Shown: positions 3,461 through 34,975, counted from the stretch's first letter. The stretch: 64,000 bases of DNA from Nitrospirota bacterium (GCA_963826885.1 CAWGYL010000007.1:7680-71679), one strand, 5' to 3'. The notes: generated from the sequence alone by a model not told the origin. Numbers and translations: made by a program.

Positions 3461-3540
3461 TGCATTTCCTCCATAAAAAACGAAAGCGGTGAAGACCAGG
3501 GCAGGTTTGGATTGAATACTGAAAATAAAGACGCTTTCCC

Positions 3541-4965
3541 CTATCTGTTCTCATCACGCACGCGAACCAACATGACACGCCGCGAATCCGGGCTTGGAAG
3601 GAACCGTTCATCCGTACGGTAACCCAGTACCCATACGATATCGTTACCAGCACAAATGAGAGGTACCCTCTCCCGATTACGCCGGGGGATTTTCTCATCG
3701 ACGAGGTAGTCCTGCAGTTTCTTGTGCCTGCCCCCCATGCCGGAAGGGCAGAATACATCACCCGGACGTCGACTTCTGACCGTCAAAGGAAGTCCCATTT
3801 TATCATAATCGAACACTGCCTGCCAGCGATAATTTTGGATATCCCAAGCCGGTGTTCCCGGCTCTCCCGGTACGATTTCAATCTCTATGCCGAGTTCCGG
3901 CACTGCTGTCAGGCCCGCCAATGCGATGGTTCGGGAGAAGGCCGCCGGTTCTCCTATCGCCGTGATGAGAAACCGGTCATATTCCCGCTCAATCGTGAGA
4001 CCGGGGAGAAAGTTCATGGTCCTGCCCGTCTGGGTTTCCTCCATGAACGTCAATGCCTGCTCGATCTGGACTACGGAGATTCGCGATGAATCCGCGCCGC
4101 AAAGGTCAGCGGTTTTTTTTAGAATTCTGCGCCTGAGCGCGGGAAGCAGGTTGCGGAATTCGGTCCTCTTAATTACCACTGTATCATTCTCCTGCATGAA
4201 AACTCCGGACGCCTTTTCGTCCAAACAGAATCGCATGGCTTCATCTTCGTCGCGGATGAGAGTAGCTTCGAAAGCAAGCGTCTCGACGATGCGGGGGTTA
4301 AAGCCTTTGAGTAGGGGAAGGAGTTCCATCCTGATCCGGTTGCGCATATAAACGGGTTTCGCATTCGATGAATCGGAAACAAAGGGGAGCGCCGCAGCAT
4401 GCAGGTAGGTCAGGATTTCTTCCCGGGTGGACTCAATCAGCGGTCGGATTATGTTGCCCCGCTTCGGCGGAATTGCTGAAAGACCAGAAATTCCCGCACC
4501 GCGCAGGAGTCGCATCAGTATTGTTTCAGCCTGATCCGTTGCTGTATGTCCTGTAGCGATCCGAGACGCTTTGACGGAGCGGGCCACCCGGTCGAGGAAC
4601 GCATACCGGACCTCGCGAGCGCCTGCCTGGGCCGAAAGCCCCCGTTCGCGGCAGAAAGCCGGGACATCAACCTGTTCGATCGTTGCCGAAATGCCGGTTT
4701 TTTGTGCCAGATCGGCAACAAAGAGCGCATCGTCTGCCGATTCCTTGCCTCGAAACAGGTGGTTGAGGTGGGCAAGGTGCAGCGTAAGATCAAGCTCCCT
4801 CGCAAACGTCTGCAGGACGCTCAGGAGGCAGACCGAGTCCGGACCGCCCGACACGGCGATCAACACGCGGTCTCCCGCATTCAGCAGGTGGTATTTCCTG
4901 ATTGTCTTTTTTACTTTGGTTATCAGCATGTTTAAAAAAGCGGAGTCGCTGTTTGACTGCCGCAC
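3541..4965 (-). CDS. tilS: tRNA(Ile)-lysidine synthetase
   Basis: 474 aa. N-terminal PP-loop 'VLIAVSGGPDSVCLL' and 'LHLAHLNH'. TilS-like C-terminal domain. The true start may be the internal Met (MLITKV...). Confidence 0.9.
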   Translation of the reverse strand: MRQSNSDSAFLNMLITKVKKTIRKYHLLNAGDRVLIAVSGGPDSVCLLSVLQTFARELDLTLHLAHLNHLFRGKESADDALFVADLAQKTGISATIEQVDVPAFCRERGLSAQAGAREVRYAFLDRVARSVKASRIATGHTATDQAETILMRLLRGAGISGLSAIPPKRGNIIRPLIESTREEILTYLHAAALPFVSDSSNAKPVYMRNRIRMELLPLLKGFNPRIVETLAFEATLIRDEDEAMRFCLDEKASGVFMQENDTVVIKRTEFRNLLPALRRRILKKTADLCGADSSRISVVQIEQALTFMEETQTGRTMNFLPGLTIEREYDRFLITAIGEPAAFSRTIALAGLTAVPELGIEIEIVPGEPGTPAWDIQNYRWQAVFDYDKMGLPLTVRSRRPGDVFCPSGMGGRHKKLQDYLVDEKIPRRNRERVPLICAGNDIVWVLGYRTDERFLPSPDSRRVMLVRVRDENR

Positions 4966-19090: not shown

Positions 19091-20575
19091 TCATTCCCCG
19101 ACCATCCTGAAGTCGATATAGCCGCGTTCTACGTTCGTTTGCACAAGCTGAACCCGGACCTTCTGGCCCACATCCATTCCGCTAAAACCGCTTATAAGTC
19201 TACCTTCAATGGGCGGATAAGGAAGACGGACCCAGGTGCCTTTTTCCGCTGCGCCTGTTACGATTGCCTCGAACTGCTCGCCGATCCGGTGTTCCAGAAG
19301 CATTGCTGCAGCAGATTTTTTGACATGCCGTTCGACCTTCTTCGCATCGTCCTCTTTTTCCGTACAGTGTTTTGCGAGTGATGACAGCTCTCCGTTCTCG
19401 TAGGGCATATGGTGCCCGGCTATGGCTGCCTTCAGCAAGCGCTGCGTGATTAGGTCAGGATAGCGGCGGTTCGGGGCCGTGGAGTGGGAATAATCCTGGA
19501 CTGCAAGAGCGAAGTGACCGCTTGGAACGCCTCCTGGCACTTCAAGGACATATTCACCCGAGCCGAGCAGCTTGATGATTGAAAGGGAAAGATCAGGAAA
19601 CCGAAGCGGGTCAGCGGCCTGCGCTTGGGTGAGGAATGCTTCCAGCGCCTTTGCATCAGGCTCTTCGGAAAGTGTTTGGCCGTGGTCTGAGACCAGTTCC
19701 CTGATCCGATCCCACCGCTTGGGTGTGCGGACCACGCGACGGAACGACGGCAGACCCCTGGCAGTGAGAAAACGCGCCGTCACGCCGTTTGCGGCGATCA
19801 TGAGGTCTTCGATGATGTCTTTTGCCCTGTTCTTTCGTTCGACCTGGATGTCCTTGATTTCATCGGCATCGAACACTAGCCGGGCCTCCACGGTCTCAAG
19901 AGTCAGCGCGCCGTGCTCGTGCCGGAGCTTTTTGAGCCGCTGTGCGACCCGGTCCTGGATCCTAATATTCTCGTCAAGGCCGGGGACCGCACTAATCTCC
20001 GCCGGGATCAGGCCATCGCCCTCCAGCCAGCCGGCAACGCTGTTGTAGGCCAGCTTTGCTTGGTTCCGGACGAGCGCTTCATACACGTCGGAATGGAGAA
20101 GCGCTCCCTCCTCACTGACAACCATTTCGACGACTAGTGCATTCCGTTCCGACGCATAGTTGAGGGACGTGAGGTCCGTCGAAAGCTTTTCCGGAAGCAT
20201 GGGAAAGATCATTGCGGCGGTATATACCGACGTTGTATTTCTACAAGCATGCTCGTCGATGGCCGAGTCCTTCTTGACCAGGGCATCGACATCAGCAACG
20301 GCTACTAGGACTTTTACGCTCTTGTCAGGCATGACCTCTGCAACGCTCAACTGGTCCAGATCGCGAGAGTCATCGTTGTCTATGGAACACCAGAGCAATT
20401 GCCGTAGATCGCGTCTTTTACTGTCTGTTGCAGTCGCCGGTTCGCGAAGCTCGCCGAGTTCGGCCAGCGCCCGGGGAGAGAAGTCCGGGAGCAGACCTCG
20501 CTCGACCATTGCCTGGCGGGCAATTCTTTGCAATAGAGCGCGGTGTTGTTTGTCGTTTGTATTTGTCAGGGCCAT
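19091..20575 (-). CDS. RNB-domain 3'-5' exoribonuclease (RNase II/R family) with C-terminal S1-like domain
   Basis: 494 aa. 'WCSIDNDDSRDLDQ', 'VYTAAMIFPMLPEKLS', 'DLMIAANGVTARF'. Confidence 0.8.
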   Translation of the reverse strand: MALTNTNDKQHRALLQRIARQAMVERGLLPDFSPRALAELGELREPATATDSKRRDLRQLLWCSIDNDDSRDLDQLSVAEVMPDKSVKVLVAVADVDALVKKDSAIDEHACRNTTSVYTAAMIFPMLPEKLSTDLTSLNYASERNALVVEMVVSEEGALLHSDVYEALVRNQAKLAYNSVAGWLEGDGLIPAEISAVPGLDENIRIQDRVAQRLKKLRHEHGALTLETVEARLVFDADEIKDIQVERKNRAKDIIEDLMIAANGVTARFLTARGLPSFRRVVRTPKRWDRIRELVSDHGQTLSEEPDAKALEAFLTQAQAADPLRFPDLSLSIIKLLGSGEYVLEVPGGVPSGHFALAVQDYSHSTAPNRRYPDLITQRLLKAAIAGHHMPYENGELSSLAKHCTEKEDDAKKVERHVKKSAAAMLLEHRIGEQFEAIVTGAAEKGTWVRLPYPPIEGRLISGFSGMDVGQKVRVQLVQTNVERGYIDFRMVGE

Positions 20576-20972
20576 GAGAACAGTATAGAGAACATTGAAA
20601 AAAAGTACAAGAGGGGAAAATTTAGACTTGATTTAGAGGGCGCATAAACGTCAGGAGAATCTTTAGGGTGGCGTCTTACGGTTTTACAATTAGTATTTTG
20701 TGGAGCTTGTCAACTCCGGTTCAAGGATGAATCAATCGAAGGATGCTAAAGACACCCCGATCCCGAAATCATCGATCGGGATATTGTTGAAGCCCTGATA
20801 GCAGCATGGGAACGTTCTGTAAGGATAACGTTAGTGCTTCCTCAAAAAAAGATAATATCTTAGGGCTGGGGGCGTTGCATTTGGCATTACTCAGCATGTG
20901 ATATCGCGATCGCAGCCCCGACGCCCCGCAAATTGTTGTACATCTCAACCGCCTCTTAGGTACATTCCACCT

Positions 20973-21221
20973 TCACCTCATCCCCTGCGTAGAAATCCGA
21001 TCAATGGTTTCCCCGGGGACGCCCATGATACCAGCATAGATCGTGCAGATGACGACAACTTCCAGACCGACTGCACTACTTATAACCACGTCCAAAAGCT
21101 GAAGAAAATGGTCTTCCTTTCCACTACGCGGCGTCAATCCTGTCGGATAAATAATGACGTCCGAGGCAGAGGTTTTTCCGTTGATGACGATTCTGGCGAA
21201 GCTGTAGGAGTCGATCTTCAT
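20973..21221 (-). CDS. Mth938-like domain protein (DUF498), possibly truncated
   Basis: 'MKIDSYSFARIVINGKTSASDVIIYP' matches the Mth938 N-terminus. 82 aa is shorter than usual. Confidence 0.45.
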   Translation of the reverse strand: MKIDSYSFARIVINGKTSASDVIIYPTGLTPRSGKEDHFLQLLDVVISSAVGLEVVVICTIYAGIMGVPGETIDRISTQGMR

Positions 21222-21225
21222 AGTT

Positions 21226-22320
21226 TCACTTCATTCTGTTTACGTGATCCGCACGAGCAGGGGGGCGGATCAAGACCCGGCCTTCCTCTCCTTCGCTTCC
21301 CTCCACCTGGCCATCAACATCCATGAACTGCCGCATAACCCAGAGGTTCGTGAGAAGATGCCGGGTGACACGGCTGGTGGTGAACTCGGACGGGCCCTGA
21401 CAAAAGGCAAGCCACGGTACGACTTGGTCCGTCAAATAGGGGTCCAGCGCACCCTTTGCTTGCAGATAAGACAGCAGCCCGTTGCATGCTTCGTCAGCCA
21501 CCTCTTCGGCTCGCTTGCCGATGGCTCCGAGGCTGCCGAACCCTGCTGAGCAGTGCTCGAATTCCGCAGCAAGGAACAGGAAGGAGCCCTTGCCGGGCGA
21601 CGGTGCTGACAGGGTCTCAATGGACGCATCAATGCCCTGTCTGCTGAGGATTGCAAGCGCCCGATAACGCTGGCGCGTAGCAATGTGGTTTGGAAGGTTC
21701 GAAACTGCCGAGATGCCGGTGACACGCAATAGACCGCCCCGGTCGATTAACGTGAGTGGCCGGAGTGCTCGTGCCGGCGTGATCCGGGCGGAGATCTGAC
21801 CGTTGCCGATAGGGTACCAGCCCCAGGATGCGATGGAGTACTCGGTTTGTACACCGAGGCGGAAGAGGAGGGGGGCTACGATGGACTTCAGATAGTGGAA
21901 CGACGGGCTCCAGGGCACATGAGTCCCGCCCTTCACGGTGACTAATGATGATTTTTCTGCGAAACATAGGGGCAGGAGTATGGACTGAAGTACAAGGCTG
22001 ACGCTTCCGGCGCTAGATTTCCTTTTAGCTACATCGAAGTTGTAAGCCCCGCCGCTTGTTCTGTCCGGCCGGAACTGAAGCGCCGTTGACGAGAGTTCGG
22101 CACCCTGGACCACAGCATTGGCAATAGACGCGGCAGCCATGACAGCCGTGAGGTGTTGCGGCTGAAGACCGGGGTTCCTCCTGGCCTTGCGGATATTAAT
22201 GATCTCCATCGGTTTTCTGAGCACGCAGGCCAAGGCAAGCGACGTGCGCAGGATCTGGCCCCCGCCTTCGCCAAAAGAGCCGTCAATGTACACCCTATGT
22301 GGGTCGAATGGGAGGTTCAT
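21226..22320 (-). CDS. rtcA: RNA 3'-terminal phosphate cyclase
   Basis: 'DGSFGEGGGQILRTSLALACVL', 'HLTAVMAAASIA', 'SAGSVSLVLQSILLPL'. The ORF call extends to 22455; the Met at 22320 is the likelier start. Confidence 0.8.
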   Translation of the reverse strand: MNLPFDPHRVYIDGSFGEGGGQILRTSLALACVLRKPMEIINIRKARRNPGLQPQHLTAVMAAASIANAVVQGAELSSTALQFRPDRTSGGAYNFDVAKRKSSAGSVSLVLQSILLPLCFAEKSSLVTVKGGTHVPWSPSFHYLKSIVAPLLFRLGVQTEYSIASWGWYPIGNGQISARITPARALRPLTLIDRGGLLRVTGISAVSNLPNHIATRQRYRALAILSRQGIDASIETLSAPSPGKGSFLFLAAEFEHCSAGFGSLGAIGKRAEEVADEACNGLLSYLQAKGALDPYLTDQVVPWLAFCQGPSEFTTSRVTRHLLTNLWVMRQFMDVDGQVEGSEGEEGRVLIRPPARADHVNRMK

Positions 22321-22806
22321 AGCATTAGGGTAATGTTTCACTTCTGATAAATATTGTACCAGACCCTTTGAGAAGGTGGGGTGATCTGCACTGGATAGTG
22401 CGACGGGGAAAATTATGTACAACAGACCTCTGAGGTACTGAAGGTTAAAGATCAATTACGGGAAAAACTGTCAAGTGAGGATGCAGTATGCGTAATGGGT
22501 GATCGAAAAGCAAAGCGTATTTGACCAAGTGCGGAGACAGGCGTTTCCAAGCCAGGGAAAAGCTGTGGACTAGCTGTCTGTATCCAGCAGTCTCAAGAGT
22601 GATGGATCCATCTTTCGGCGGGATGTCATCCTTTCGTGAATGGGCTCGTATGGTTTGGCGTCATGGTCCTTCTTGTCGATCTTCACGATCGGGCTAACGC
22701 AAAGAGGAATGATCCGAAAAGTTAATCAGGTTTATGAATTATAAAGTAAGCAGGGAAGAAGATGATTTAAAATGACGTTTGGCTGTTTTTCCCTTGAAAA
22801 ATATTA

Positions 22807-22835
22807 TTCAGGCGGGCAATAACTGCCCGCCTGAA
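22807..22835 (-). terminator. rho-independent terminator for the tetrahaem cytochrome gene
   Basis: Perfect 12-bp inverted repeat TTCAGGCGGGCA-ATAA-CTGCCCGCCTGAA. Followed on the minus strand by TAATATTTTT. Confidence 0.5.
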
Positions 22836-22910
22836 CAGGGATAATTGGTTGACAGGTTGCCAGGAAAACCGTTCAATCGTATTAACTTGACGAGCGATTT
22901 CTATCTTGCG

Positions 22911-23504
22911 TTACTGCTTTTTTTTGGCTGCCGGAGAACTCACTGCGCTCTCCGGTGCCGACGTTCCATAGGCTCGTTCATCCATGCTGTTGAACAAGTG
23001 CGTTTTTTCCGCTGCTGCTTTGGGATCGGCCTTCATGGGGTGGCATATTGCACAGAAGGTCTCCATCTTAGAACCATTGGCCGTATCGATTCTCAAATAT
23101 TTATAGTTGGCGTTAGAAGGATGCGGGTCATGACAGCTGACACACTCGAATTTCCCGTCTCTCAATAACTCAGGAGAAACGCGCGCGACTTTTGGATTTA
23201 CAGAACTGATTCCGAAGGGATGGCTCATATGCCCTTCTATGGGCTTGATTCCCTGTCCACCCTTTTCAGGGGTCTCATGACAACCAAGACAGAGTGCGCT
23301 GATTCCGGAATAAGCCTGTTTGGTCTTTGGATTGATGTCCTTCTTGTTTTGCTCGACGGCGAAAATGAGCGTCGGTTCCTTTGCAGTGTGAATCGCATGA
23401 CAACCGGTACACATTAAACCATCATGACCGCCCGCGGCAAACACCATGATCGGTGCGATACAAGCAACGACAACGATCGCTAAACTGAACAATAACTTTT
23501 TCAT
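22911..23504 (-). CDS. secreted tetrahaem c-type cytochrome
   Basis: Four CxxCH: 'CTGCH', 'CLGCH', 'CVSCH', 'CAICH'. Signal peptide 'MKKLLFSLAIVVVACIAPIMVFAAG'. GGAGGA RBS upstream of the Met at 23504. Confidence 0.8.
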   Translation of the reverse strand: MKKLLFSLAIVVVACIAPIMVFAAGGHDGLMCTGCHAIHTAKEPTLIFAVEQNKKDINPKTKQAYSGISALCLGCHETPEKGGQGIKPIEGHMSHPFGISSVNPKVARVSPELLRDGKFECVSCHDPHPSNANYKYLRIDTANGSKMETFCAICHPMKADPKAAAEKTHLFNSMDERAYGTSAPESAVSSPAAKKKQ

Positions 23505-23814
23505 TACGCTAAGTCCTCCTCGCCTGGGTGGCAGATTCATTATGTTTAATACCGCAACTATTATATATCGCAGATTGAGACACCCCTTTGCGGGCTTCCT
23601 ATGATGTCCGTCAGCATTGATATAGCAACGCCCGCAAATTATTTTAGGACAGAAGAGCCCCAAGATGACTATGCAGTATGCCCACTTTGCCCCACTACTT
23701 GCAAAAGGCCATCCTTAGTAATGGACGAGGTCATAAATCCGCCAATTTTTCACACAAAACCGGCACAGACGAATGAAAAAGGGTTAGCGTATGACAGCCA
23801 ACCCCCTGAAAATT

Positions 23815-23859
23815 TGGTGGAGCTGACGGGGATCGAACCCCTGACCGCAAGACTGCCAG
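23815..23859 (-). repeat. direct repeat A: 45-nt copy of the 3' end of tRNA-Ala(GGC), 2 mismatches (att remnant)
   Basis: 'TGGTGGAGCTGACGGGGATCGAACCCCTGACCGCAAGACTGCCAG' against tRNA 34900-34944. A terminator-like hairpin (23783-23810) lies upstream, as at the intact tRNA. Confidence 0.7.
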
Positions 23860-24332
23860 TTCGGTCTTGCAGATTTTAATTCATGACATGATTATTGTCA
23901 ATTGATTATTATTCTTATATTTCCTCGATTGGAAATAGTGTCTTTGTATGCCTGGTAATGCCTGTTTTTGACTGTCTACTATACAAAAACCATGCAGTCA
24001 CGCTGAGGCCAGTCGAGGGGGCTGATTCCAGCGGAGAGCTACCACGCGTTTCGATTAATTCCTATATCACCTACGGATTTTCTAAAATCGTGCTTATCGC
24101 CTGGCAGTACATACTTCAATCCGTAAAACAGGATTGTACCGCGCGGGGGGATATTCTCGCCTACAAGGTTTGATTTCGATGGATCGAGAACTAGGCCAAC
24201 AATAATTCATGCAAAAACAATATGTTTGAATATTCTGATTGTGCGGGCGCAGATCGCGCCCTGAAGATGGCTGGAATCATAGTTCCTCCGATTGGCAGGA
24301 TGCTAAAAGCATTGCCTTGGTTTCCTTATATT

Positions 24333-25202
24333 TTATTCGTGGCCGCCGTGCTGGCGCAGCAATTCCACCATGTCCTTGTGGCCCTTAAGCGCCGCCTCGT
24401 GTAAAGGAGTCACGCCGTTGTTGGCCTTGGCATTGACATCGGCCCCGTTGGCCAGCAGCAATTCCGCTACGTCCTTGTGGCCCTTACGCGCTGCCTCGTG
24501 CAAAGGCGTCTGGCCGTTGCTATCCTTGGCATTGACGTCGGCCTTGTTGGCCAGCAGCAATTCCGCCATGTCCTTGTGGCCCGACAGCGCTGCCTCGTGC
24601 AAAGGCGTCTGGCCGTTGCTGTCCTTGGCATTGACGTCGGCCTTGTTGGCCAGCAGCAATTCCGCCACGTCCTTGTAGCCTAACAGCGCCGCCTCGAGCA
24701 AAGGTGTATCGCCGTAGATGTCCTTGGCATTGACATCGGCCTTGTTGGCCAGCAGCAATTCCGCCACGTCCTTGTGGTCATTATTCGCCGCCCAGTGTAA
24801 AGGCGTCGTGCCGTTGTCGTTCTTGGCATTGACGTCGGCCATGTTGGCCAGCAGCAATTCCGCCACGTCCTTATGGCCCTCATGCGCCGCCAAGTGCAAA
24901 GGCGTCGTGCCGTTGCTATCCTTTGCATTGACGTCGGCCTTGTTGGCCAGCAGCAATTCCGTCACGTCCTTGTAACCATTAAACGCCGCCAAGTGCAATG
25001 GAGTCTCACCCTCGTTGTCTTTGCTGGAAACCAGATCAGGATTGTCATTAAGCAGCGCCTTGACCTTTGCCAAATCATCGGCCTTGGTTGCATCATGAAT
25101 CTCGCCGCAGAAGGCGAGGCTGCTCCATGCCAGCACGACCAGCGTGACGGCGGCGTAGCGTGGAATTGGGGAATGGCTGAGTCGACTAAAAAAAGAGTGC
25201 AT
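24333..25202 (-). CDS. secreted ankyrin-repeat protein (7-8 ANK repeats)
   Basis: Signal peptide, then repeated 'GxTPLHxAAxxGHKDVAELLLANKADVNAKD' units. The underlying DNA is a ~99-nt tandem repeat (24400-24990). Confidence 0.85.
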   Translation of the reverse strand: MHSFFSRLSHSPIPRYAAVTLVVLAWSSLAFCGEIHDATKADDLAKVKALLNDNPDLVSSKDNEGETPLHLAAFNGYKDVTELLLANKADVNAKDSNGTTPLHLAAHEGHKDVAELLLANMADVNAKNDNGTTPLHWAANNDHKDVAELLLANKADVNAKDIYGDTPLLEAALLGYKDVAELLLANKADVNAKDSNGQTPLHEAALSGHKDMAELLLANKADVNAKDSNGQTPLHEAARKGHKDVAELLLANGADVNAKANNGVTPLHEAALKGHKDMVELLRQHGGHE

Positions 25203-25693
25203 ATTATTTATGGTTCCTCCTATTGGCCGACCCTCTTCGTGGTAGCACTTGATGTTGTTGGGGCCGTGTATGGTTGAGTGGTAGCAGCGTTCGCTGCTTT
25301 TACTAGTTTTATGCTGCCCACCAAGTTGCTATTCAAATCGTAAATGGCGTAGACTGCGCCTTCGTTGGTCGTGATCACGATCGTTCCGTCCCTGAGTTCT
25401 GCCTTCGCTATGAGTATGGATTTATTGTCGACGGTTTTCGTGATAGTACTTTTTTAGTGTTGATAGTTTTCATTTGCAAATTCTCCGAAAGAAAAGAAGT
25501 GTGAAACTGAAATCTTTTGTTGCGGAATGTGTTTAGTATTGCAGAAAGACTTTATTCAGTCAAGGTGATATTACTAAATGAAGTATTGGTGTTTACAACA
25601 ATCGCAACTAAACAGCTTCGAGGCTGGGGTGAAAGACGACAGCGGGGCTTCTAAACAAAGAAGGACCTTCTCACGCGACTTCGCAAGGTTTTC

Positions 25694-26290
25694 GTGAATC
25701 TTCCCCTTCGCTGTTTTACTACGAGGTTCCTGGAAAAATGGCAAACAAAGCGAATGGAGATTAACGAACCAGCCACGGTCAACCGGCTTCTTGCCACTAC
25801 CAAGCACATGTTCACAACGACAGCTGAAAGGGAGATGGTGGATGAGGCTGTTGTAAAGCATGTTCTGGCAGTTAAACTGCTACCTGAGAATAATCGACGC
25901 CTGCGGTATCTTTCCACGGAGGAGTGCCAGACCCTTACAAGTGTCTGCCCTTCGTACCTCAAGGCGATTGTCATTGTTGCTCTTAATATCGGCATGAGGA
26001 AGGAAGAGATCCTATCATTGCAATGGGAGAAGCATGTTGATCTTCGGCATGGGTTTATTCTGCTGGACGTGACGAAGAACGTCGAGAGGCGGTGAATCCC
26101 GATCAACCAGACGCTCTGTTATGCAAGTCAAGGGTTACGAGACGGCTAGATAGTTCCTTTCTGTTCACCGATGAGAAGGGGGGGGCCGGTTCAGTACTCC
26201 TAGCTCATACCGGCAAGACAGCGAAGCGTAGCGAATATGGCACAAGTGTTTTGGCGCATGGCATCAAGGCGAGGACTGGTCTTTAGAATA
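25694..26290 (+). pseudogene. tyrosine recombinase (phage-type integrase) remnant
   Basis: 'LRYLSTEECQTL...AIVIVALNIGMRKEEILSLQWEKHVDLRHGFILLD' is in frame. Integrase-like C-terminal sequence continues out of frame to about 26290. No N-terminal domain. Confidence 0.55.
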
Positions 26291-26379
26291 CTCATTATGG
26301 GAAATGGAAACTAGGAAGGGAGGGCTGGATTTCTCCAGCCCTCCCTTAAGGGAGAGTTTATGCAATGATACTTAACAGA

Positions 26380-27822
26380 TTAGTCTTTCGCGTGACACTT
26401 GTTGCAATACGAACGGTTGAACGTCCCGAACGTATTCGAATTTCTGTCATAGTATGCAGCTTTCAGCTGTGACGTGGTATAGCCAAGGCTATTGGCGATT
26501 CTTCCGGAATCACCCGAATAAGCAAGTAATGCAGTGCTCCAGTTATCGGTACCAATATACAACCCACCCAGGGTAAGGAACTGGCCGGCCTGAGCATCCC
26601 ACCTGAGCATCTCCGGGAAAGCAGAGGCATGCACACGATGGCAGCTCACGCACATTACGTTTTCCGTCCCGGTGTTCGGGCCGACTCCGTATGCACCAGC
26701 TACGTTCGTGGCGTGCGAAGAAAGAGCCGTCAAGTTGGTCGAGGAGAGAGTAAGACCCTCTTCATAGGGAGCAAGAGAGTTGTAGGAGCTTGACGAGTTG
26801 CCAGAAAGGTCGCCGGAACCCAGATAGGCATTGTAATTGGTAGCTTCCATTCCAACGGCGTTGTTCAGAAGAGCAGCTGCTCCTGCCGGATGCCTATGGG
26901 TCGAGCTCGGGTCGGCAGCATTGTTCAAGATGCCGGAATGGCAGTTTCCGCACCACTCAGACATACCGCTACCATAAGCTACGCGGACACCATAATTCGA
27001 AGCGTACGTTGCGGCAGACTCCGTCTGGTTGTAAGTGCTGGGTGCAACGGCAACCGGAGGCATAGCTGTAAATGCAGCAGCAGCAGTCGTGCTGACTGAC
27101 TTGGGCAGATAGCCGATGCCGCCCAGGAACCGGTACACGCCCATGGCCTGGCCCGCGCTCAAAGCATTCGCGCCAGTGTTGCCGTACGAACCTGCTTCGA
27201 TGATCGGATCGACTTTGGAGCCAAGAGTACGCTGTTCTATCGTGCCGGTAGAGCTGATGCGGTAATCACTGTGCGGGTTATGGCAGCTGTTGCAATAGAG
27301 GTTTGCGGCAGGATAGGAGCCGCCCGGTGACACACCACCATTGGCTGCATAGTTCGTGGAAGAGGAGAGACCAAAATCGACAGCTACGATGTTATGACCA
27401 TGGTGCGAGCCGGGGTTCGTGGCCTTGCCAGCGGTTGATACGCCGGAGACCGTCAGCCATGCAAAGTCGCCAGCAGGTCCGCGCTCGACCGGGACAGCAC
27501 CGTTACCGGCGTACGAGGACATGACATGGTAGCTACCGCCTACAGTATCAGCAGCAGCGTGGCAGTTGAGGCAGGTCGAGCTCTGGTCACCGCCCTTTAA
27601 GAGGAAACGACTAGCATCATTAAACTCGGTGGCATTTGTCGGATTCACGTTCGTGCCGAACTTGCTGATGGGGATAATGGAGCCATTTAATGATTCGTGC
27701 ATGGTATGGCAGCTTTCGCAGGTTGCGACGCCGCCGTCATGGAACGCGTAAGTCGTGCCGGCAACGCCCATAATCATAAGGGCTGCGGCAACGACGAGAA
27801 TGCTTATTCTTAAACTTTTCAT
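26380..27822 (-). CDS. secreted hexahaem c-type cytochrome with low-complexity Gly/Ser/Ala/Thr-rich linkers
   Basis: Six CxxCH: 'CESCH', 'CLNCH', 'CNSCH', 'CGNCH', 'CVSCH', 'CNKCH'. Signal peptide 'MKSLRISILVVAAALMIMGVAGTTYA'. AGGAGG RBS. Hairpin terminator 26318-26345. Confidence 0.8.
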   Translation of the reverse strand: MKSLRISILVVAAALMIMGVAGTTYAFHDGGVATCESCHTMHESLNGSIIPISKFGTNVNPTNATEFNDASRFLLKGGDQSSTCLNCHAAADTVGGSYHVMSSYAGNGAVPVERGPAGDFAWLTVSGVSTAGKATNPGSHHGHNIVAVDFGLSSSTNYAANGGVSPGGSYPAANLYCNSCHNPHSDYRISSTGTIEQRTLGSKVDPIIEAGSYGNTGANALSAGQAMGVYRFLGGIGYLPKSVSTTAAAAFTAMPPVAVAPSTYNQTESAATYASNYGVRVAYGSGMSEWCGNCHSGILNNAADPSSTHRHPAGAAALLNNAVGMEATNYNAYLGSGDLSGNSSSSYNSLAPYEEGLTLSSTNLTALSSHATNVAGAYGVGPNTGTENVMCVSCHRVHASAFPEMLRWDAQAGQFLTLGGLYIGTDNWSTALLAYSGDSGRIANSLGYTTSQLKAAYYDRNSNTFGTFNRSYCNKCHAKD

Positions 27823-28559
27823 TTTGATCCTCCTAGAGTTTTTAACACACAAAACCTGAGTGTTGCTGGTTGATGTCGACGCCACCTCAATCGACATCCC
27901 GATTTGCTACATTGTGCTGCTATTGCCTCTTTTTCCCATTAACACCCCCTTTCTCCTTAGACAAGGATTCTCGTAACGAAAAAAATTACTGCCCAATCTT
28001 GCTTGAAAACGCTGACGCCTTGATGCGCGCCCGGAGATAATCCATTTCAATCGGAACGATCAAGCCGCCGGGTCCATTAAAATCCCCATGTCTTACCTAG
28101 CCTAAATTGCATTAAACATTCCATTTTTTTATTTCACAACATTAAATTTATGTCACAAAAAGATACGAGAGAAATATGCCTTCATAAACAAATCGTTAAA
28201 CATACTTTGTTACATATAAAAATGTTTTATAATATTATAATTACAATTTGTAACATAATTAAAATTGTGTTTTATATAAAATACGGTAGGTGAAATTACC
28301 AACATTCGGGTATTTGACCGTTTTTAAAATGCATCCCATCAAAACAACCCCTTTCATATGGAATTAAAGGCTGTAAATGCATGGCAGCTGAATTGTGCGT
28401 TTTACCAGTTTTATTAAGGCAGGCTTAGGGGAAAAATCAGGCGTGCTGCATGGAACGATTGCGGGACGAACTGGGAAAGTGGGTAGTTAGGGAAAATTTA
28501 TTAAATACGGAGAAAATCGTCTTTCACAACGAAGTTCAAGGAGGCAGAGGGACGTTATG

Positions 28560-28950
28560 CGAGATCAAGACGGCTATCGGTAAGGGGATTGAACCGGATG
28601 AGCAAAGAAGATAGGGCATTTTATCTTTAAGGACTTAGCGACAAAATATCTTGAATGGATAAAAGGCAGTCAAGCGTCGACAGAGGTCAAGGGATATATC
28701 ATACGCATGCTTGAAGGATCGGGAAATCCTGCTATCAGGCGACAGCGAAAATGTGGAAGCTGTCGAGCTCGTGCCACGTGCCGCTAAGAGTTAACATGCA
28801 CCTTGTCGAACAGTTACAGACAGATCTAAAGCGGAAGGGCTTGAGCCCCGAGAGCAAAACCACCTGAAAGAGACAAGCTCAAACAAAATCTTGAGCACTT
28901 TGAAGCAGCTGTTTTCGAAAAGCTATGAATGAGATATGAATATGGTTGAA
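28560..28950 (+). pseudogene. integrase N-terminal (SAM-like domain) remnant with stops
   Basis: 'FKDLATKYLEWIKGSQASTEVKGYIIRMLE...' then '...LKRKGLSPESKT...'. Interrupted by stop codons. Lies immediately tRNA-proximal to repeat B. Confidence 0.45.
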
Positions 28951-29000
28951 CAGTCCAAATGAAAAAGGGTTGACTATTGAACGTCAACCCGTTGAAAACT

Positions 29001-29045
29001 TGGTGGAGCTGAGGGGGATCGAACCCCTGACCCCACGACTGCCAG
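29001..29045 (-). repeat. direct repeat B: 45-nt copy of the tRNA-Ala 3' end (1 mismatch)
   Basis: 'TGGTGGAGCTGAGGGGGATCGAACCCCTGACCCCACGACTGCCAG'. Preceded by hairpin GGGTTGAC...GTCAACCC. Confidence 0.75.
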
Positions 29046-29531
29046 TCGGTCTTGGGGGTTTTTATTGCTGTAGTGTTTCGTGATAACTGGTTGTCTTTAA
29101 TCGGTTCACGTATGAAGAGTAGGGTAGCATATGGTCACTGACAATTTCTGTTTATGACTCTCTACTATATAAAAAACAAAAACTATACATTCGCATATTC
29201 CGGAGGATATCTGCCGAGTATTTCAAAACGATTTCATGATCTCGAACTTAGCTTCCGGCAGGACAGACTATAATCAGTAGTTTACTGTTAGACAACATCT
29301 ATGGCATAAATCCATTTACTCTCGCGTGAGAAAAAAACGCTCGTGACTAACCATCTTGTCCTCTTCTGCGTTTTGCGATTATGGCTCCTACTAGGAACAC
29401 GCTGATTCGCCTTCCATTCGTTGAATTCCAAGGTGTTATGCAGAATCGCTGAGGGTGATAGCTCGGCTTGACAAATTAATAAAATTAAGCTATTATTTTA
29501 TTAACATAATAATTGGGTTAGCACAAAATAA

Positions 29532-29903
29532 ATGGAAACAAAAAAAATTCTTATAACCGACGACAACAAAGATATTCGGGACGCCCTCGCCTATATCCTT
29601 GAAAAGGAAGGCTATAAACTATGGATGGCTAAAGACGGTGCCGAGGCTTTGCGAAAAGTGAAAAACGAACGTCCTGATATTGTCTTTCTCGATATCGTGA
29701 TGCCTGAAGTGAATGGCTATGACGTGTGCCGCATCATAAAAAAAGACCCTGTGCTCAAAAAAACATATGTCATCATGCTGACCGCCCAAGACCAGGTGGC
29801 GGAACAGGAACGCGGCAAGGAAGTAGGCGCGGACGAATATATCGTCAAGCCGTTCAGCCCCATGGAAATCCTTGCCATAATTAAAAGACTTGAGACTGCG
29901 TAA
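29532..29903 (+). CDS. orphan single-domain response regulator (CheY-like receiver)
   Basis: 123 aa. 'ILITDDNKDIRDAL', 'DIVFLDIVMPEVNG', 'VIMLTA', 'GADEYIVKPF'. AT-rich upstream region. Confidence 0.8.
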   Translation: METKKILITDDNKDIRDALAYILEKEGYKLWMAKDGAEALRKVKNERPDIVFLDIVMPEVNGYDVCRIIKKDPVLKKTYVIMLTAQDQVAEQERGKEVGADEYIVKPFSPMEILAIIKRLETA

Positions 29904-29957
29904 TCTCAGCAGTCGATCTCCCAACGAATAGCTGATTGAATTCCAGATAAACGCCTT

Positions 29958-30530
29958 TTCAGGAAACCATTTCGAGCATTAGGAAGGTCAAGCAGTTCAA
30001 AGAGGATAAGCGGCTCCGGTACCTGCATATCGAGGAAGCTCAGGGATTAGTTAGCGTTTGAGATAACCATTTGAAACCCATTGTAATAACTGCGCTGAAT
30101 ACGGGAATGAGAAAGGCGGAAATTCTGAAATTACGATGGGACTAGGTTGATCTTCATCACGGGTTTATCCTACTTGATAAAACCTGAACGGAAGCGGCGT
30201 GAGCTCCCTGTCAATGAAAGCTGAAAAAAGTCTTTCACTCCCTTAGCCGTCGGATCGGCGTAGCCTATGTTTTCTATGTTTAGAAAACATTGAAACCATA
30301 TCAGGTGTGAAGCGCAGCTTTGTAACAGCCCTGGACCGCGTCAAGATTGCGGACTTTTATCCCCATGATTTGCGGCATACGTTCGCTTCGCATCTTATAA
30401 TGGCCGGATTTGATCTGGTGGCCGTAAAAGAATTGCTCGGACACAAAGATATTAAGATGACACTCCGTTACACTCATCTCGTTCCCGGCACACAAGAGGA
30501 AGGCTGTCAATGTCCTCGACGCCCCTGAAC
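29958..30530 (+). pseudogene. tyrosine recombinase remnant (C-terminal half, stops and frameshifts)
   Basis: 'RYLHIEEAQGL', 'VITALNTGMRKAEILKLRWD*VDLHHGFILLDKT' with stops. Then in-frame '[42 protein letters not shown]' carries the catalytic HxxR...Y. Homologous to the 25694 remnant. Confidence 0.6.
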
Positions 30531-30625
30531 CCATCTCAAAACTCCATACCTACTATCAACTGCAAAATACTATACAAAAAATTGAAAAGGAGTTAGCCGA
30601 TGTTAGCTAACCCCTTGATAACTCT

Positions 30626-30670
30626 TGGTGGAGCTGAGGGGGATCGAACCCCTGACCCCAAGACTGCCAG
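30626..30670 (-). repeat. direct repeat C: exact 45-nt copy of the tRNA-Ala 3' end
   Basis: 'TGGTGGAGCTGAGGGGGATCGAACCCCTGACCCCAAGACTGCCAG' is identical to 34900-34944. Confidence 0.75.
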
Positions 30671-31276
30671 AGAAGGCTGATAAATAAGGCTTTTTTGCCT
30701 ATTTTTGTCTTTTCAAGGACATGCTTCCCAAAAACGGTAGATGTAGAGAACGCCAACGGCATTAAATGAACATCTTTGAACCCCTCTACTAACACACCAA
30801 CTGACACAGCTACTTTATTGTAAAAATGAAAGGACGATTCAAGGCCCTTGGGGCAACCACGGGCCATTTCTTTTTCCGATTCAGGCCGGCCGGAAGTACA
30901 TACTTCAATTGGTAAATCAGTATTGTATCGAAGGGGAAAATTCTGTCAGCTACACCTACATACTATAACGCTCCTGTCAAGAAGAAGATTTAATTTATTT
31001 TTATTCAACAGGATAACTTGATCAATATATTAAAAACGCACCTCTCTCTTTCGGCATTTACGCCGTTATCACTTTTATCGACGAGTCTCTCGCAACCAGA
31101 CGAACGACATCTCTAATAGTTATGTTACCTATGCGGCGTGCCGTATGGCCGCCAAGAATACCTTATCCAGATTCTATCGTTCAAACGAGAGGCCCTGTAT
31201 TGTAGGTGACGAGGTCAACTGCCCTCAACTATCATAAGCCCGGGCTCTCCCGTCGAAATAAATTTTGCGTACACCA

Positions 31277-32584
31277 TTATGCGGCTGCTTTTTGTTCTAC
31301 GCGCTTTTCCAGTTTAAGGTATTTTGGGTCGAAGCACTCCTTTTTTTTCATCAGTGTCCAAGCAATAATCAAGAGCTTCGCGGCGAGCTTCACCCTCATT
31401 TTAGTACCAATCCCTTTTTCCTTCGCCCGTCCAGCAAGCTTATTCGTAAAATAGGGAATAAAGTCCTTGCTCTTAATCGAGGCAATGAACGCTGCCTGGT
31501 ATAACGCGCACCTCAGATCCGACTTGCCCTGTTTGGAGATGGTCGGCGTTGCCCTGTTTGACGTTTTTCCGCTTCTCTGTGCGCAAAGATCAAAACCCGC
31601 CAACCGCAAAACCTGTTTGCCGCTTGTAAAGCGGTGGGGATCGCCGATGGCTCCGAGGACCTTGGCGGAAACATCCGGCCCAAACCCAGGAATGCTCAAG
31701 AGGTACGTATACTCCGGAAACTCAAGACAGGCATTCTCAAGCTTGTCTTCAACCGCTTTGATCTCCTGCCTAACCTGTTTCAAACTGTCTACTGCAATCT
31801 GAGCTTCATGGAAGGCAGCCTCTCCCATGGTGCAGCCAACGGAATTGACCGCGGTCCTCCAAATCGCTCCCACCCTGCGTTCCCGAGCCAACGTCATTTT
31901 GCCTGGTGCTACGGTACGGCAGAAATCATCGTATTCCATGCCGGCGATAGCGGAAGGATCCAGACATTCCCGCACTACCGCCAGGGTCTCTGACGATCCA
32001 TAGTACGTATCCAACTCAGGGAAATACTGTGCAAGAATATGATTGCGAATATACGCGCTTATGCCGTGTTCCCGCTTCTTCAGTCGCCTCTTGAGTGCGT
32101 TTAGTACGCGCACGTTTTGAAGCGTCATCAAGGGATATTCATAAAACATACATTTTCCCTGGGCAATGAGATCAGCAATATTGGCCGAATCCTTGTCATC
32201 GTTTTTATCCCATCGACCGTTCAGAAGCTGCCGGTTGTTCTTTACTGCCATGCCGCCAACAAGAACGACCATCAGACCGCATTTGATCAGATGCTCCGCC
32301 AGGGGCTTGTGGTAGTCTGCCGTCGGCTCGATCCCGAAAACGACTTTCGGCAGACTGTATTGAATCTTGACGCGCTCCACATACGCATCCAGCTTTTCGA
32401 ATCCCTCGATTGTGTTGTCAATGACCACATTCTTTAAAAGCGTCTTGCCTTGCGCAGTACCAAAAAAAGCACGGTGCTTCTCTTTCGCCACATCAATCCC
32501 AATGATCAAATACTCTTCCGAACCACGAATTTCTTTCTTCAGTAACCGAAATTGCTCAAGTCTGATATCATCGATATAGTTCAT
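31277..32584 (-). mobile_element. IS110-family insertion sequence transposase (intact 435-aa ORF); IS ends not determined
   Basis: N-terminal DEDD/RuvC-like 'LIIGIDVAKEKH'. C-terminal 'IPGFGPDVSAKVLGAIGDPHRF...GKQVLRLAGFDLCAQRSGK' is typical of the IS110 family. Confidence 0.85.
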
Positions 32585-33083
32585 AGAAGCCTCCTGTCTC
32601 TTGAATTTAGTTCACCTATAAACTAATTCTTAGCAGGAGGTTTCTATTTTGGGTAGATTGAAAGTGCAATATCCCTTATGATTAAATGGGAAAGATTAAC
32701 CTCATGCTCTACCCATATATAACTATCCCGCAATTTCAAGAAATGGAAACAGTCATCGACTTCATCTTGAAGTCTGCAAAAGTTTCATTTTATCGAGTGT
32801 CAGTTTCAGCAGTAAATGCGACCAGGATTGCATTACGTCCCTGCACGCGGACCCTGTTATTATCAACCCTCAGTTATTCCACAAGAATCTTTAAACTTCT
32901 ATTTGACACGAAAACTGAATAAGTTTAAAATATTAGCTCACCATTGCAATGTATTTTCAGGCCCCCGTGGTACTATTACGGGGGCAGGTCACAAATACCA
33001 CGGGCTTTAGCTCGTGAGCAATTCATTTTACAAAGACCCCTATTTTTATTATATATTTTTCGCATCGCTTAATAACATGGTTA

Positions 33084-34160
33084 ATGCAGAAATCAATGAG
33101 ATTATCAGACTTTTCTAACGGACGGGATAATAATTTCAATCTTATTCGTATCGTTGCGGCCCTCGCTGTATTGGTGACCCACAGTTTCGCGTTGGCGTTA
33201 GGGACGGGGGATGCTGAGCCCTTTCGAAAAAGTCTTGGCATGTCCCTGGGAGATATGGCACTTGATGCGTTCTTTATCACAAGTGGTTTTCTGGTCACGG
33301 CCAGCTTGCTGAAGAAACAACGTATTACCGAATACTTTTGGGCAAGAGCGCTAAGAATATTCCCCGCCCTTTTACTGATGCTGTTGCTAACCGTTTTTCT
33401 GCTGGGCATATGCTTTACAACATGTTCAGTGTCAACCTACTTATCATCAGCCGAGACCTACATTTATTTTGCAAAATGCTTAACCCTCATCACAGGCGTG
33501 GCTTACAACTTGCCGGGGGTATTCGATAGCAACCCATTAAATAACATGGTTAATGGCTCGCTTTGGACGCTGCCCATCGAAGTAATAATGTACATAGTTT
33601 TGGCTCTTGGATGGTTTGCGTTGCAAAAAGTGCCAAAATTGCGGTCAACCGCATTTAAAATAGCTATCGTCTACTTTACTTTCGTGGCTGGAATTCACAT
33701 GCTTGTTCGTCACTTCTTTTTTCCTACTCCAAGCCTCTTTGAAAGACTTTCCTTCATGTTCTTTGCTGGTGCCACTTTTTACATCCTTAGAGCGCGCATT
33801 ATACTCATTCGGTGGCTGTTCTGGTTCTTTGTAATCAGCCTCTCGTTAGCAACAGTGAATAAGCATGTGTTCTTCGTAATCTACGTGTTTACCATTGCCT
33901 ACATTTTGCTTTATATTGCATACATTCCATCCGGACTGGTCCGAAAATACAACCAGTTGGGTGACTACTCATATGGTATTTATATCTATGCTTGGCCCGT
34001 ACAGCAATCGATTGCAGCTTTGATTCCGGGAGTCTCTGTTTCCCGCATGATAGTAATTTCTACTGTCGTGACCATCTCTTTGGCTGCCCTTTCATGGCAC
34101 TTTTTGGAGCAACGAGTCCTCAGCCTTAAAGCACTTTACATTCGCCAAACTAATAGTTAA
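33084..34160 (+). CDS. acyltransferase family 3 (OafA/YrhL-like) integral membrane O-acyltransferase
   Basis: 358 aa. 'NNFNLIRIVAALAVLVTHSF'. Multiple TM helices, 'DYSYGIYIYAWPVQQ'. Confidence 0.8.
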   Translation: MQKSMRLSDFSNGRDNNFNLIRIVAALAVLVTHSFALALGTGDAEPFRKSLGMSLGDMALDAFFITSGFLVTASLLKKQRITEYFWARALRIFPALLLMLLLTVFLLGICFTTCSVSTYLSSAETYIYFAKCLTLITGVAYNLPGVFDSNPLNNMVNGSLWTLPIEVIMYIVLALGWFALQKVPKLRSTAFKIAIVYFTFVAGIHMLVRHFFFPTPSLFERLSFMFFAGATFYILRARIILIRWLFWFFVISLSLATVNKHVFFVIYVFTIAYILLYIAYIPSGLVRKYNQLGDYSYGIYIYAWPVQQSIAALIPGVSVSRMIVISTVVTISLAALSWHFLEQRVLSLKALYIRQTNS

Positions 34161-34899
34161 CTTGCATTGTGCATAACAAACACATCCACGCGGACGCGCT
34201 TAAGCGCATCGGTTATGTTTGACGTTGTGTATGTTGTAGCGGGGAAAATAGCGAAATATCCGTTGACCGCCGTTACAAACTTGCGAAAGTCGAAGTAACA
34301 TGTAAAGTTCCTGATCAATGTATAACAATTCATGGCGACTTAAAAGTACTATCAAAGTGTACAAGTTCAGAAAGAAGCGATTTTCGTGAACTTCAGGATG
34401 AAGTCGATAATCGTTTCCATTTCTTGAAATTCCAGAATTGCAAGTGAAGCTCGTAATTTCCAAATCTTGCAACTGCTGTTTGCTTCAGGAAGTTGTTGTT
34501 GACTAAAACTATATTATAAAAATGTAAACTATAAACAGTATATGTGATCATCGACATACAATCATTTATCGTGGTCAGAATCGAACCGACATGGAGTTGC
34601 CCCCGGAGGATTTTGAGTCCTTTAACCCCCTTCAACGGCACTTCCCCTAAGTGTCGTTTTTTATGTGACAATCCTTTCTGAATCAAGAGTTATCTCGTTC
34701 AGGTATGTTGACAGGAGTTGGACGGAGGTGGTTAGTGTTTTGAATCCGTGGGCATAACTTTGGGCATAAGGGTAGCCTCAGAAAAAGACTGTTTGAGATT
34801 CTGTATCCGGAAATTGACTTAGTAATTTGCCAATTGACGCGAAACTGCATGGTCAAATAAAAAAGGGTTAGCTAATGATAGCCAACCCTTTATAATTCT

Positions 34900-34975
34900 T
34901 GGTGGAGCTGAGGGGGATCGAACCCCTGACCCCAAGACTGCCAGCCTTGTGCTCTCCCAGCTGAGCTACAGCCCC
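34900..34975 (-). tRNA. tRNA-Ala (GGC anticodon)
   Basis: Reverse complement is GGGGCTGTAGCTCAGCTGGGAGAGCACAAGGCTGGCAGTCTTGGGGTCAGGGGTTCGATCCCCCTCAGCTCCACCA. Has the G3:U70 Ala identity pair, anticodon GGC and a T loop TTCGATC. Followed by a terminator hairpin 34862-34895 plus a T run. Confidence 0.9.

Follow-up and report, generated by a model that had tools for sequence, protein, structure and literature searches.

Genomic islands that enter the genes of small RNAs are well documented. The Islander survey of islands in tRNA genes (tDNA) and transfer-messenger RNA (tmRNA) genes, which includes tandem arrays and attachment (att) sites centred on the anticodon, counted four arrays of three or more members among 3919 islands in 2168 genomes; its criterion for a tandem array asks for an integrase gene and a fragment for each member and needs intact integrases (Hudson et al., 2015, PMC4383910, through which we cite Williams, 2002). 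Tandem accretion and deletion, together with cis-mobilisable elements (CIMEs), have been described for elements related to ICESt1 (Pavlovic et al., 2004, as cited in PMC3146451), and tandem genomic islands occupy ssrA in Dehalococcoides (McMurdie et al., 2011, PMC3146451). The tyrosine recombinases of archaea are reviewed in PMC8371274. In this study, we describe a locus in a Nitrospirota genome, within a stretch of DNA of 64 kb (CAWGYL010000007.1:7680-71679) that is called the window throughout and whose own numbering we use. The region 23553-34975 of the window is very probably a tandem array of relics of small integrative elements, the tyrosine integrase of which targeted the 3' part of the tRNA-Ala(GGC) gene. 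Tandem accretion with deletion at a tRNA hot spot, which is what this array represents, is a well-known type of genome feature.

The array is laid out around the tRNA gene and three displaced copies of its 3' end:

34900-34975, minus strand: intact tRNA-Ala(GGC) gene, found by ARAGORN
34900-34944, minus strand: att identity block, the 3' 45 nucleotides (nt) of the tRNA, from the anticodon loop to CCA (tRNA positions 32-76)
23815-23859, minus strand: T0, displaced tRNA-Ala positions 32-76, 2 mismatches to the gene
29001-29045, minus strand: T1, displaced tRNA-Ala 3' fragment, 1 mismatch, in a strand of the anticodon stem
30626-30670, minus strand: T2, displaced tRNA-Ala 3' fragment, an exact match to the gene

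All three copies are in direct orientation and on the minus strand, as is the tRNA gene, which is 100% identical to the gene of nine related species and the 5' half of which reads CCTTGTGCTCTCC. The 19-nt core of the tRNA has four exact matches in the 64-kb window against 0.02 expected, and the search with this core found no copy of the tRNA-Ala 3' end in the window beyond these four. A repeat search returned one family of four direct copies of 89 nt each, at 23772, 28958, 30583 and 34857. The true repeat unit is therefore about 89 nt, because every 45-nt copy is joined to a hairpin and U-run that make up the other 43 nt. The fragments start at the 7-nt anticodon loop (CTGGCAG) in the window and also at two related loci (L008 and L024), and the mismatches to the gene fall stepwise from T0 toward the tRNA. 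Between the copies, which are spaced 1.6-5.2 kb apart, lie unrelated genes of foreign composition and relics of integrases. An Rfam scan found nothing in the region except tRNA-like matches.

Each of the four hairpins has the form of a stable intrinsic terminator, the U-run being on the tRNA strand; folding energies range from -14.6 to -20.2 kcal/mol, and z-scores from -2.8 to -6.2:

23772-23814, minus strand: hairpin 0, group 1, terminator of element E0 (-15.4 kcal/mol, z -3.8)
28958-29000, minus strand: hairpin 1, group 1 (-14.6 kcal/mol)
30583-30625, minus strand: hairpin 2, group 2 (-17.8 kcal/mol, z -6.2)
34857-34899, minus strand: hairpin 3, group 1, terminator at the live tRNA (-20.2 kcal/mol, z -5.7)

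The differences between their stems are paired substitutions. Together with the adjoining integrase tails, the hairpins form a group 1 (CAGTCAAATGAAAAAGGGT...), to which hairpins 0, 1 and 3 of the window and those of the related loci L001, L004 and L093 belong, and a group 2 (GAAAAGGAGTTAGCC...), with hairpin 2 of the window and those of L005 and L095; hairpin 2 is nearly the same as the hairpin of the element at tRNA-Gly in L005. Since the same hairpin type stands beside integrases at two different tRNAs, the hairpin is carried by the element and is not a property of the host gene. Judged by its sequence, hairpin 3, which is of the element type seen beside integrases in L001, L004 and L093, appears now to serve the live tRNA as its terminator. 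The integrase genes of the array comprise at least two tail/hairpin subtypes.

With the L001 integrase as the starting query we obtained 5628 homologous proteins at E <= 1e-20, all of them PF00589; full-length homologues, and a family hidden Markov model (HMM) built from them, were mapped onto the window. Residues of the relics are numbered on P0001, the integrase of L004:

23553-23771, plus strand: relic D, C-terminal part, P0001 residues ~331-400, frameshifted (tblastn, blastn, HMM)
25592-26170, plus strand: relic A, P0001 residues ~70-297 (family HMM E 2e-53; PF00589 27.3 bits; tblastn)
28490-28957, plus strand: relic B, N-terminal half, P0001 residues ~27-182, several frameshifts (tblastn, HMM)
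29947-30530, plus strand: relic C, catalytic half, P0001 residues ~183-380 (PF00589 101.6 bits with the repaired translation)
34830-34856, plus strand: integrase tail, last ~27 nt, group 1 (tblastn, P0001 residues 397-440 over 34830-34961)

The four relics D, A, B and C, all on the plus strand, converge on the tRNA, and every one has stops and frameshifts; across the whole window the family HMM matches these four only, and no intact integrase of the family is present. They lie beside the fragments as D in E0, B (plus A) in segment 1 and C in segment 2. Relic D was recovered by tblastn with P0001 (E 1.8e-16 over 23553-23861, a span that takes in hairpin 0 and T0), by blastn to the 3' end of the L001 integrase (72% over 269 nt) and by the family HMM (23626-23715, E 1e-4). 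It is the right end of an older element, E0, the left part of which is gone, and because D lies to the left of T0, T0 at 23815 is not the outer end of the array. Relic A, which reaches the Pfam cut-off for PF00589 over 25655-26092, has lost its own hairpin and tRNA fragment and marks a further element fused into segment 1. One contig of the same array from another sample (L006, 99.2% identity) is missing 284 nt inside this relic (L006 423-424 against window 25614-25896); relic erosion is still polymorphic in the population. Relic B (HMM matches in 28505-28929, best E 7e-10) is closest to P0001, P0002 and P0004 and is joined directly to a group-1 tail and hairpin. Relic C has three in-frame stops as well as frameshifts, followed by a group-2 tail, and its region 29951-30607 has HMM matches and reaches the PF00589 cut-off. 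The tail at 34830-34856 is the sole remainder of the integrase of segment 3. The array has four tRNA-bounded units, and the integrase genes that it once held numbered five or more (D, A, B, C and the one ending in the tail at 34830-34856). A search of the window for relics of the HTH_17, PhdYeFM-like and replication genes of the family found none.

On the other side of each displaced copy lies an arm:

23860-24332, plus strand: arm 1, the left arm of segment 1; its first 22 nt and 23952-23992 resemble arm 2; shared block 24098-24165
29046-29531, plus strand: arm 2; like arm 1 at 29046-29066 and 29138-29178; shared block ~29254-29295
30671-31276, plus strand: arm 3; shared block 30887-30954; its junction matches L024

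The DNA to the right of T0 and that to the right of T1 are alike over the first 22 nt (TCGGTCTTG...). Arms 1 and 2 are 80% identical between 23952-23992 and 29138-29178, and arms 1 and 3 are 85% identical between 24103-24141 and 30892-30930. A block common to all three lies ~220-240 nt from the tRNA fragment, at the same distance in each arm, and holds an imperfect inverted repeat (GTACATACT...AGTATTGTAC). Arm 2 also has an AT-rich, promoter-like stretch ahead of a receiver gene. Moreover, hairpin 2, T2 and arm 3 taken together (30577-30897) are 82% identical over 330 nt to positions 4137-4457 of L024, which comes from another Nitrospirota species.

Much of this anatomy had been described in an earlier note, which a model wrote from the sequence alone. 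The three direct recurrences of the 45-nt tRNA end, with 2, 1 and 0 mismatches, were recovered by the repeat search; the terminator hairpin that it placed at each copy is supported by folding; its view that all integrases are pseudogenes holds throughout; and the homologous arms that it saw in all three segments are real but short, being the 80% and 85% blocks and the single three-way block. Its integrase remnants stand as A, B and C at about the positions that it gave, but it missed D, and in segment 3 there is only the tail of ~27 nt.

Intact members of the family give the element a consistent order. In L001 and L004, at tRNA-Ala, and in L005, L093 and L095, at tRNA-Gly(GCC), an HTH_17 gene, a PhdYeFM-like gene, the integrase, its tail, the hairpin and the tRNA follow one another, with the tRNA on the strand opposite to the integrase; the HTH_17 gene is excisionase-like, and the L005 element has phage-type replication genes (Phage_rep_O, DnaB_C and a primase zinc ribbon). 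The open reading frame (ORF) called for P0001 passes through the hairpin and antisense into the tRNA, ending in ..LVELRGIEPLTPRLPALCSPS, so that integration alters its last few codons; such read-through is seen at L004:2179-3501 and at L001:3933-5130. A scan of IMG/VR with P0001 found nothing closer than 27% over the full length. When L005, L093 and L095 were searched for a complete element, no second tRNA fragment was found within 10 kb.

The same tRNA gene is in use as a target among relatives of the host, an uncultured, Thermodesulfovibrionia-like Nitrospirota whose nearest species representatives are 84% identical in hydrogenase. Strain L001 (ENA ERZ25039509), which is 98.9% identical in the adjacent hydrogenase operon, carries a different, near-intact element directly at the same tRNA; two or more frameshifts interrupt the integrase of this element, owing perhaps to errors of assembly or to incipient decay. 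In nine related species an identical tRNA follows the same hydrogenase operon and the downstream content is different each time: L007 has PIN, PP2C, phosphoenolpyruvate-utilising enzyme and NmrA genes and then, 6.6 kb away, a homologue of the RNase II gene of the window (19091-20575); L009 and L010 have an integrase of the same family after the tRNA; and L008 and L024 have extra tRNA fragments at the locus. In L008, a 5' fragment of tRNA-Ala (positions 1-32, at 11844-11875) stands ~180 nt upstream of the intact gene and ends where the 3' fragments begin, with further decayed 3' fragments at 13022 and 19934. In L024, whose hydrogenase is 79% identical to that of the window, the tRNA is followed by a hairpin resembling hairpin 3, and a 1.25-kb islet without an integrase, holding an ORF resembling S-adenosylmethionine (SAM) methyltransferases, lies between the 82%-identical junction and the tRNA (3117-4457). 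The array itself is 99.8-100% identical in contigs of at least six other datasets, and independent contigs cross T0, T2 and the tRNA.

Five related species have one to three tandem units of ~170-190 nt after tRNA-Ala and its terminator (for example at L007:12082-12400, L011:3064-3250, L012:4764-4950 and L014:11430-11800). Each unit holds GAGGGGGATCGAACC, which is the T-arm in reverse complement, followed by ~95 conserved nt that include two hairpins, in which the substitutions between species are paired; the last 17 nt of tRNA-Ala and a further terminator complete it. The units have no match in Rfam, and their motif is absent from the window. They recall the 178-bp tRNA-linked repeats that follow tyrT in E. 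coli.

The composition of the DNA between the fragments sets it apart. The flanks have a guanine-plus-cytosine (G+C) content of 0.53, the three segments one of 0.43-0.49. Tetranucleotide usage in segments 1-3 correlates with that of the core and flanks at 0.29-0.43, where core chunks of equal size reach >=0.85, so this usage is foreign in all three. The foreign composition that the earlier note gave to the cargo holds to this extent, but the ankyrin gene (G+C 0.58) and the cytochrome gene (0.55) are host-like in G+C. The ankyrin, cytochrome, receiver and acyltransferase genes occur in 0 of 80 related loci. That the region is ancestral core DNA, which the note would have taken from relatives with the same genes but no tRNA fragments, is rejected by the foreign composition and by the relatives that lack the cargo genes.

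The anatomy of the window, read with the established facts on tRNA-targeting tyrosine integrases (PMC4383910), suggests how the array arose. The att site of the element before integration (attP) would consist of the integrase tail, the hairpin, the 45-nt tRNA copy from the anticodon loop to CCA, and then an arm; the 3' end of the integrase and the terminator hairpin would precede the tRNA copy, on the other strand. Integration, with a crossover in or beside the anticodon-loop heptamer, would rebuild the tRNA with DNA of the element and with a terminator that the element supplies, and would push the earlier tRNA 3' end, together with its hairpin, out beyond the incoming element. The product would read old hairpin, T, arm, cargo, integrase, new hairpin, T, tRNA 5' half, and at least four rounds would yield E0 (relic D), segment 1, segment 2, segment 3 and the tRNA. 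Internal deletions would then have cut into each integrase and taken away the backbone for excision and replication, one att copy or more and the array's outer end, leaving arms, att copies, hairpins and intact cargo genes. The position of the crossover, the order of arrival and the genes that came as cargo are what we infer. The youngest element probably lies nearest to the tRNA gene, and the mismatch gradient and the fresh element beside the tRNA in L001 fit this rule; alternatively, an element may have integrated into an older T copy.

The locus shows most of what defines a tDNA island in the Islander sense. A tRNA gene and displaced fragments in direct orientation, three of 45 nt, lie on the same replicon; the disrupted tRNA has been restored, being intact and followed by a hairpin of the element type; the interval is absent from relatives (0/80 loci) and atypical in composition; and the att block, which runs from the anticodon loop to the tRNA 3' end, is the anticodon-centred block of class A. 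The PF00589 integrase that should lie inside the interval is represented by pseudogenes only, A and C passing PF00589 and B and D being recognized through the HMM or tblastn. Under the tandem-array definition, with its integrase for each member, the locus does not qualify, since all relics are pseudogenes and segment 3 retains only its tail.

Several observations weigh against a simple succession of elements. Segment 3 (30671-34856) has no match to the family HMM. The arm homology, although in register, is confined to blocks of 40-70 nt, and the T2/arm 3 junction is without the CGGTCTTG motif that is seen at the other two T/arm junctions. Along the array, a given type of arm does not go with a given type of integrase tail, so an interval between two fragments cannot simply be equated with a single element. 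Among the family members recovered, none is complete with att at both ends, leaving attR and the arms of a live element unseen, and neither a truly empty site nor the native outer junction was found among the related loci. In addition, relic B stops at about P0001 residue 182 (~142 of the family HMM) and relic C starts at about 183 (HMM ~149), and complementary halves are not something that a story of three simple elements predicts. The mismatch between arms and tails, the lack of an att copy for relic A and a receiver gene that abuts an integrase together indicate that deletions have fused neighbouring elements; accretion and internal deletions have made the array a patchwork, which no longer has its original outer end. 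Successive integration, as proposed in the earlier note, is thus supported at its core by the fragment starts, the element-type hairpins, the arms, the composition, the relatives and L001, whereas its count of three elements is not. Nor does it follow that the array is fixed: the att copies are intact, T2 being identical to the tRNA, and a related integrase circulates in the same population (L001). Going by their sequences, segments of the array may be mobilised in trans, and segments 2 and 3, with T1, T2 and the tRNA intact or nearly so, would fit the layout of cis-mobilisable elements.

The complementarity of B and C (breaks at 28943-28957 and 29947-29960 of the window) could mean that the two are halves of one integrase gene, split by a 1.0-kb block (28943-29946) made up of an integrase tail, hairpin 1, T1, arm 2 and the receiver gene, in which case T1 would not come from integration into the tRNA and segment 2 would not count as a separate element. 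A coincidence as close as this is expected of two independent deletions in ~1-3% of cases, and the block is laid out as an unrecombined attP (hairpin, T, arm), with both its sides homologous to the T0 junction (83% over 110 nt). However, the similarity profiles of B and C are discordant (Spearman 0.16, where intact genes have a median of 0.75 and 4% lie at or below 0.16), and their top ten homologues share one entry. B and its adjoining tail and hairpin belong to group 1, C and its own to group 2; the junction of B with its tail lies in microhomology and fits a plain internal deletion; a scan of the Joint Genome Institute (JGI) metagenomes found no uninterrupted B-C gene; and no known mechanism inserts such a block at ends other than att. 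We therefore hold a common origin of the two halves to be possible but unlikely, and a single integrase cut by a 1-kb module with a complete attP-like site and the receiver gene to be somewhat more doubtful still; two deletions are clearly favoured, odd though their coincidence is. If B and C were one gene, att-bearing modules could be moved or copied in a way independent of the att core, and part of the apparent tandem accretion at tRNA genes would be secondary insertion. Integrases of the SSV1 type, whose coding region contains attP, have their gene split into N and C parts at the att core by integration. Such a split by the element's own att site was considered and rejected, since the catalytic domain is unbroken in intact relatives beside the tRNA, and the B/C break does not lie beside an att core on the C side.

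Stepwise accretion in this lineage is also to be set against inheritance of the array, or of its tRNA-proximal part, from an ancestor shared with other Nitrospirota, or its acquisition en bloc as a composite island, with later change limited to deletion and cargo turnover. The long match of hairpin 2, T2 and arm 3 to L024 speaks for this, as do the integrase-less islet of L024 and its tRNA with a hairpin like hairpin 3, the similar degree of conservation of the native spacer upstream of the tRNA (81%), and the invariance of the array in at least six datasets. Yet L007-L014, with more similar hydrogenase (81-84%), are without the junction, although T-by-T deletion could explain this; if the two element types had landed here and in L024 in one and the same order, the picture would be no different; and strain L001 shows the site still in use. 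We regard such an inherited or composite origin as a serious contender, if a little short of an even chance. Far less probable, to the point of being very nearly dismissed, is that local duplication or unequal crossing-over gave rise to the T copies as tRNA-linked repeats, like those after E. coli tyrT. The short tandem units of L007 and L011-L014, which end in the last 17 nt of tRNA-Ala and a hairpin and have no integrases, would be a precedent, but every copy in the window stands between an integrase relic and a homologous arm, the hairpins are set apart by paired changes and match by type those of intact elements, including elements at tRNA-Gly, and the copies lie kilobases apart with unrelated foreign genes between them and without the unit motif of the relatives. 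Repeats of the tyrT/rtT type, which are short units without integrase or intervening genes, are rejected for the window. An array built by accretion and deletion of tRNA-targeting elements remains our preferred account.

The genes that the array carries, which had been identified correctly from the sequence according to Pfam, are as follows:

24333-25202, minus strand: ankyrin-repeat protein, 289 amino acids (Ank_2, E 9e-82)
26380-27897, minus strand: hexahaem c-type cytochrome (Paired_CXXCH_1; six CXXCH motifs)
29532-29903, plus strand: single-domain response-regulator receiver, 123 amino acids (Response_reg, E 1e-30)
31277-32584, minus strand: IS110-family transposase, intact ORF (DEDD_Tnp_IS110 and Transposase_20)
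33084-34160, plus strand: membrane acyltransferase (Acyl_transf_3)

The ankyrin gene has six to seven tandem repeats of 99 nt (24257-25048) with 78-89% DNA identity, which suggests a recent expansion of the repeat units inside the gene. The likely start of the cytochrome is position 27822, the beginning of a signal peptide. The receiver gene borders directly on mid-integrase sequence. No second copy of the IS110 transposase was found in the window. The acyltransferase gene is bracketed by 49-nt inverted repeats (86%; 32725-32773 and 34390-34438), both arms of which read as the start of a small ORF (..FQEMET[V/I]IDFILK..), so that the cassette is enclosed by the start of one gene in two diverged copies, inverted to each other. 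Also in segment 3, at 34566-34640 on the minus strand and thus on the strand of tRNA-Ala, relaxed ARAGORN settings returned a tRNA-Leu(CAA)-like pseudo-fragment with a good anticodon arm, a long variable arm and a T-arm, the D-arm and acceptor being broken; it may derive from another tRNA-targeting element or from a cargo tRNA that has decayed. To the left of the array, the interval 20576-23552 (RtcA, a DUF498-like ORF and a four-haem cytochrome) is core-like in tetranucleotide usage (0.74) and is absent from L007. RtcA (21226-22455) and the four-haem cytochrome are thus lacking in the nearest relative, though core-like in composition. The four-haem cytochrome gene (22911-23504, minus strand) starts 49 nt from the truncated end of relic D, and because of this its promoter region must lie in relic DNA.

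The locus leaves the understanding of how such islands form unchanged. It documents an integration hot spot at tRNA-Ala(GGC), and an abundant family of elements with tyrosine integrases, in uncultured members of Nitrospirota, a little-studied phylum; the family brings its own terminator for the rebuilt tRNA. It also shows a route by which genes for a multihaem cytochrome, an ankyrin protein, a receiver and an acyltransferase can become resident: they arrive by accretion, and the mobility genes are lost afterwards. This should be useful in annotating these metagenome-assembled genomes, as island-finding tools miss arrays in which the integrases are relics only.

Among known systems, the array resembles the Islander islands, in which a tyrosine integrase acts at the 3' part of a tRNA gene, the gene is restored, the far end carries a displaced 3' fragment that lies in direct orientation and starts at the anticodon loop, and several islands may stand in tandem at one tDNA. 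It differs from them in that its integrases are all relics, so that the tandem-array pattern is formed by pseudogenes only and not by segment 3, and in its host, an uncultured Nitrospirota. To the extent that ICESt1 and its CIMEs are described in the citing source, they share integration beside residents followed by deletions, which gives att-flanked modules without recombination genes in a composite island; by the same source, the difference is that the elements of the window appear small and non-conjugative, the intact relative L005 having phage-type replication genes, and that the target is a tRNA and not the end of a protein gene. With SSV1 there is a likeness in those intact relatives (P0001, L004) in which the integrase ORF runs via the hairpin antisense into the tRNA, whereas in the family of the window the att core lies after the catalytic domain and not inside it, and the integrase is unbroken beside the tRNA. 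The ssrA islands of Dehalococcoides resemble the array in being tandem islands downstream of one small RNA gene, bounded by direct repeats of its 3' end, with strain-specific content, some members without an integration module, and respiratory cargo. Theirs, however, is a serine recombinase with a 20-bp repeat at the T-loop of tmRNA, whereas the window has a tyrosine integrase, a 45-nt repeat that begins at the tRNA anticodon loop, and a terminator hairpin for each element.

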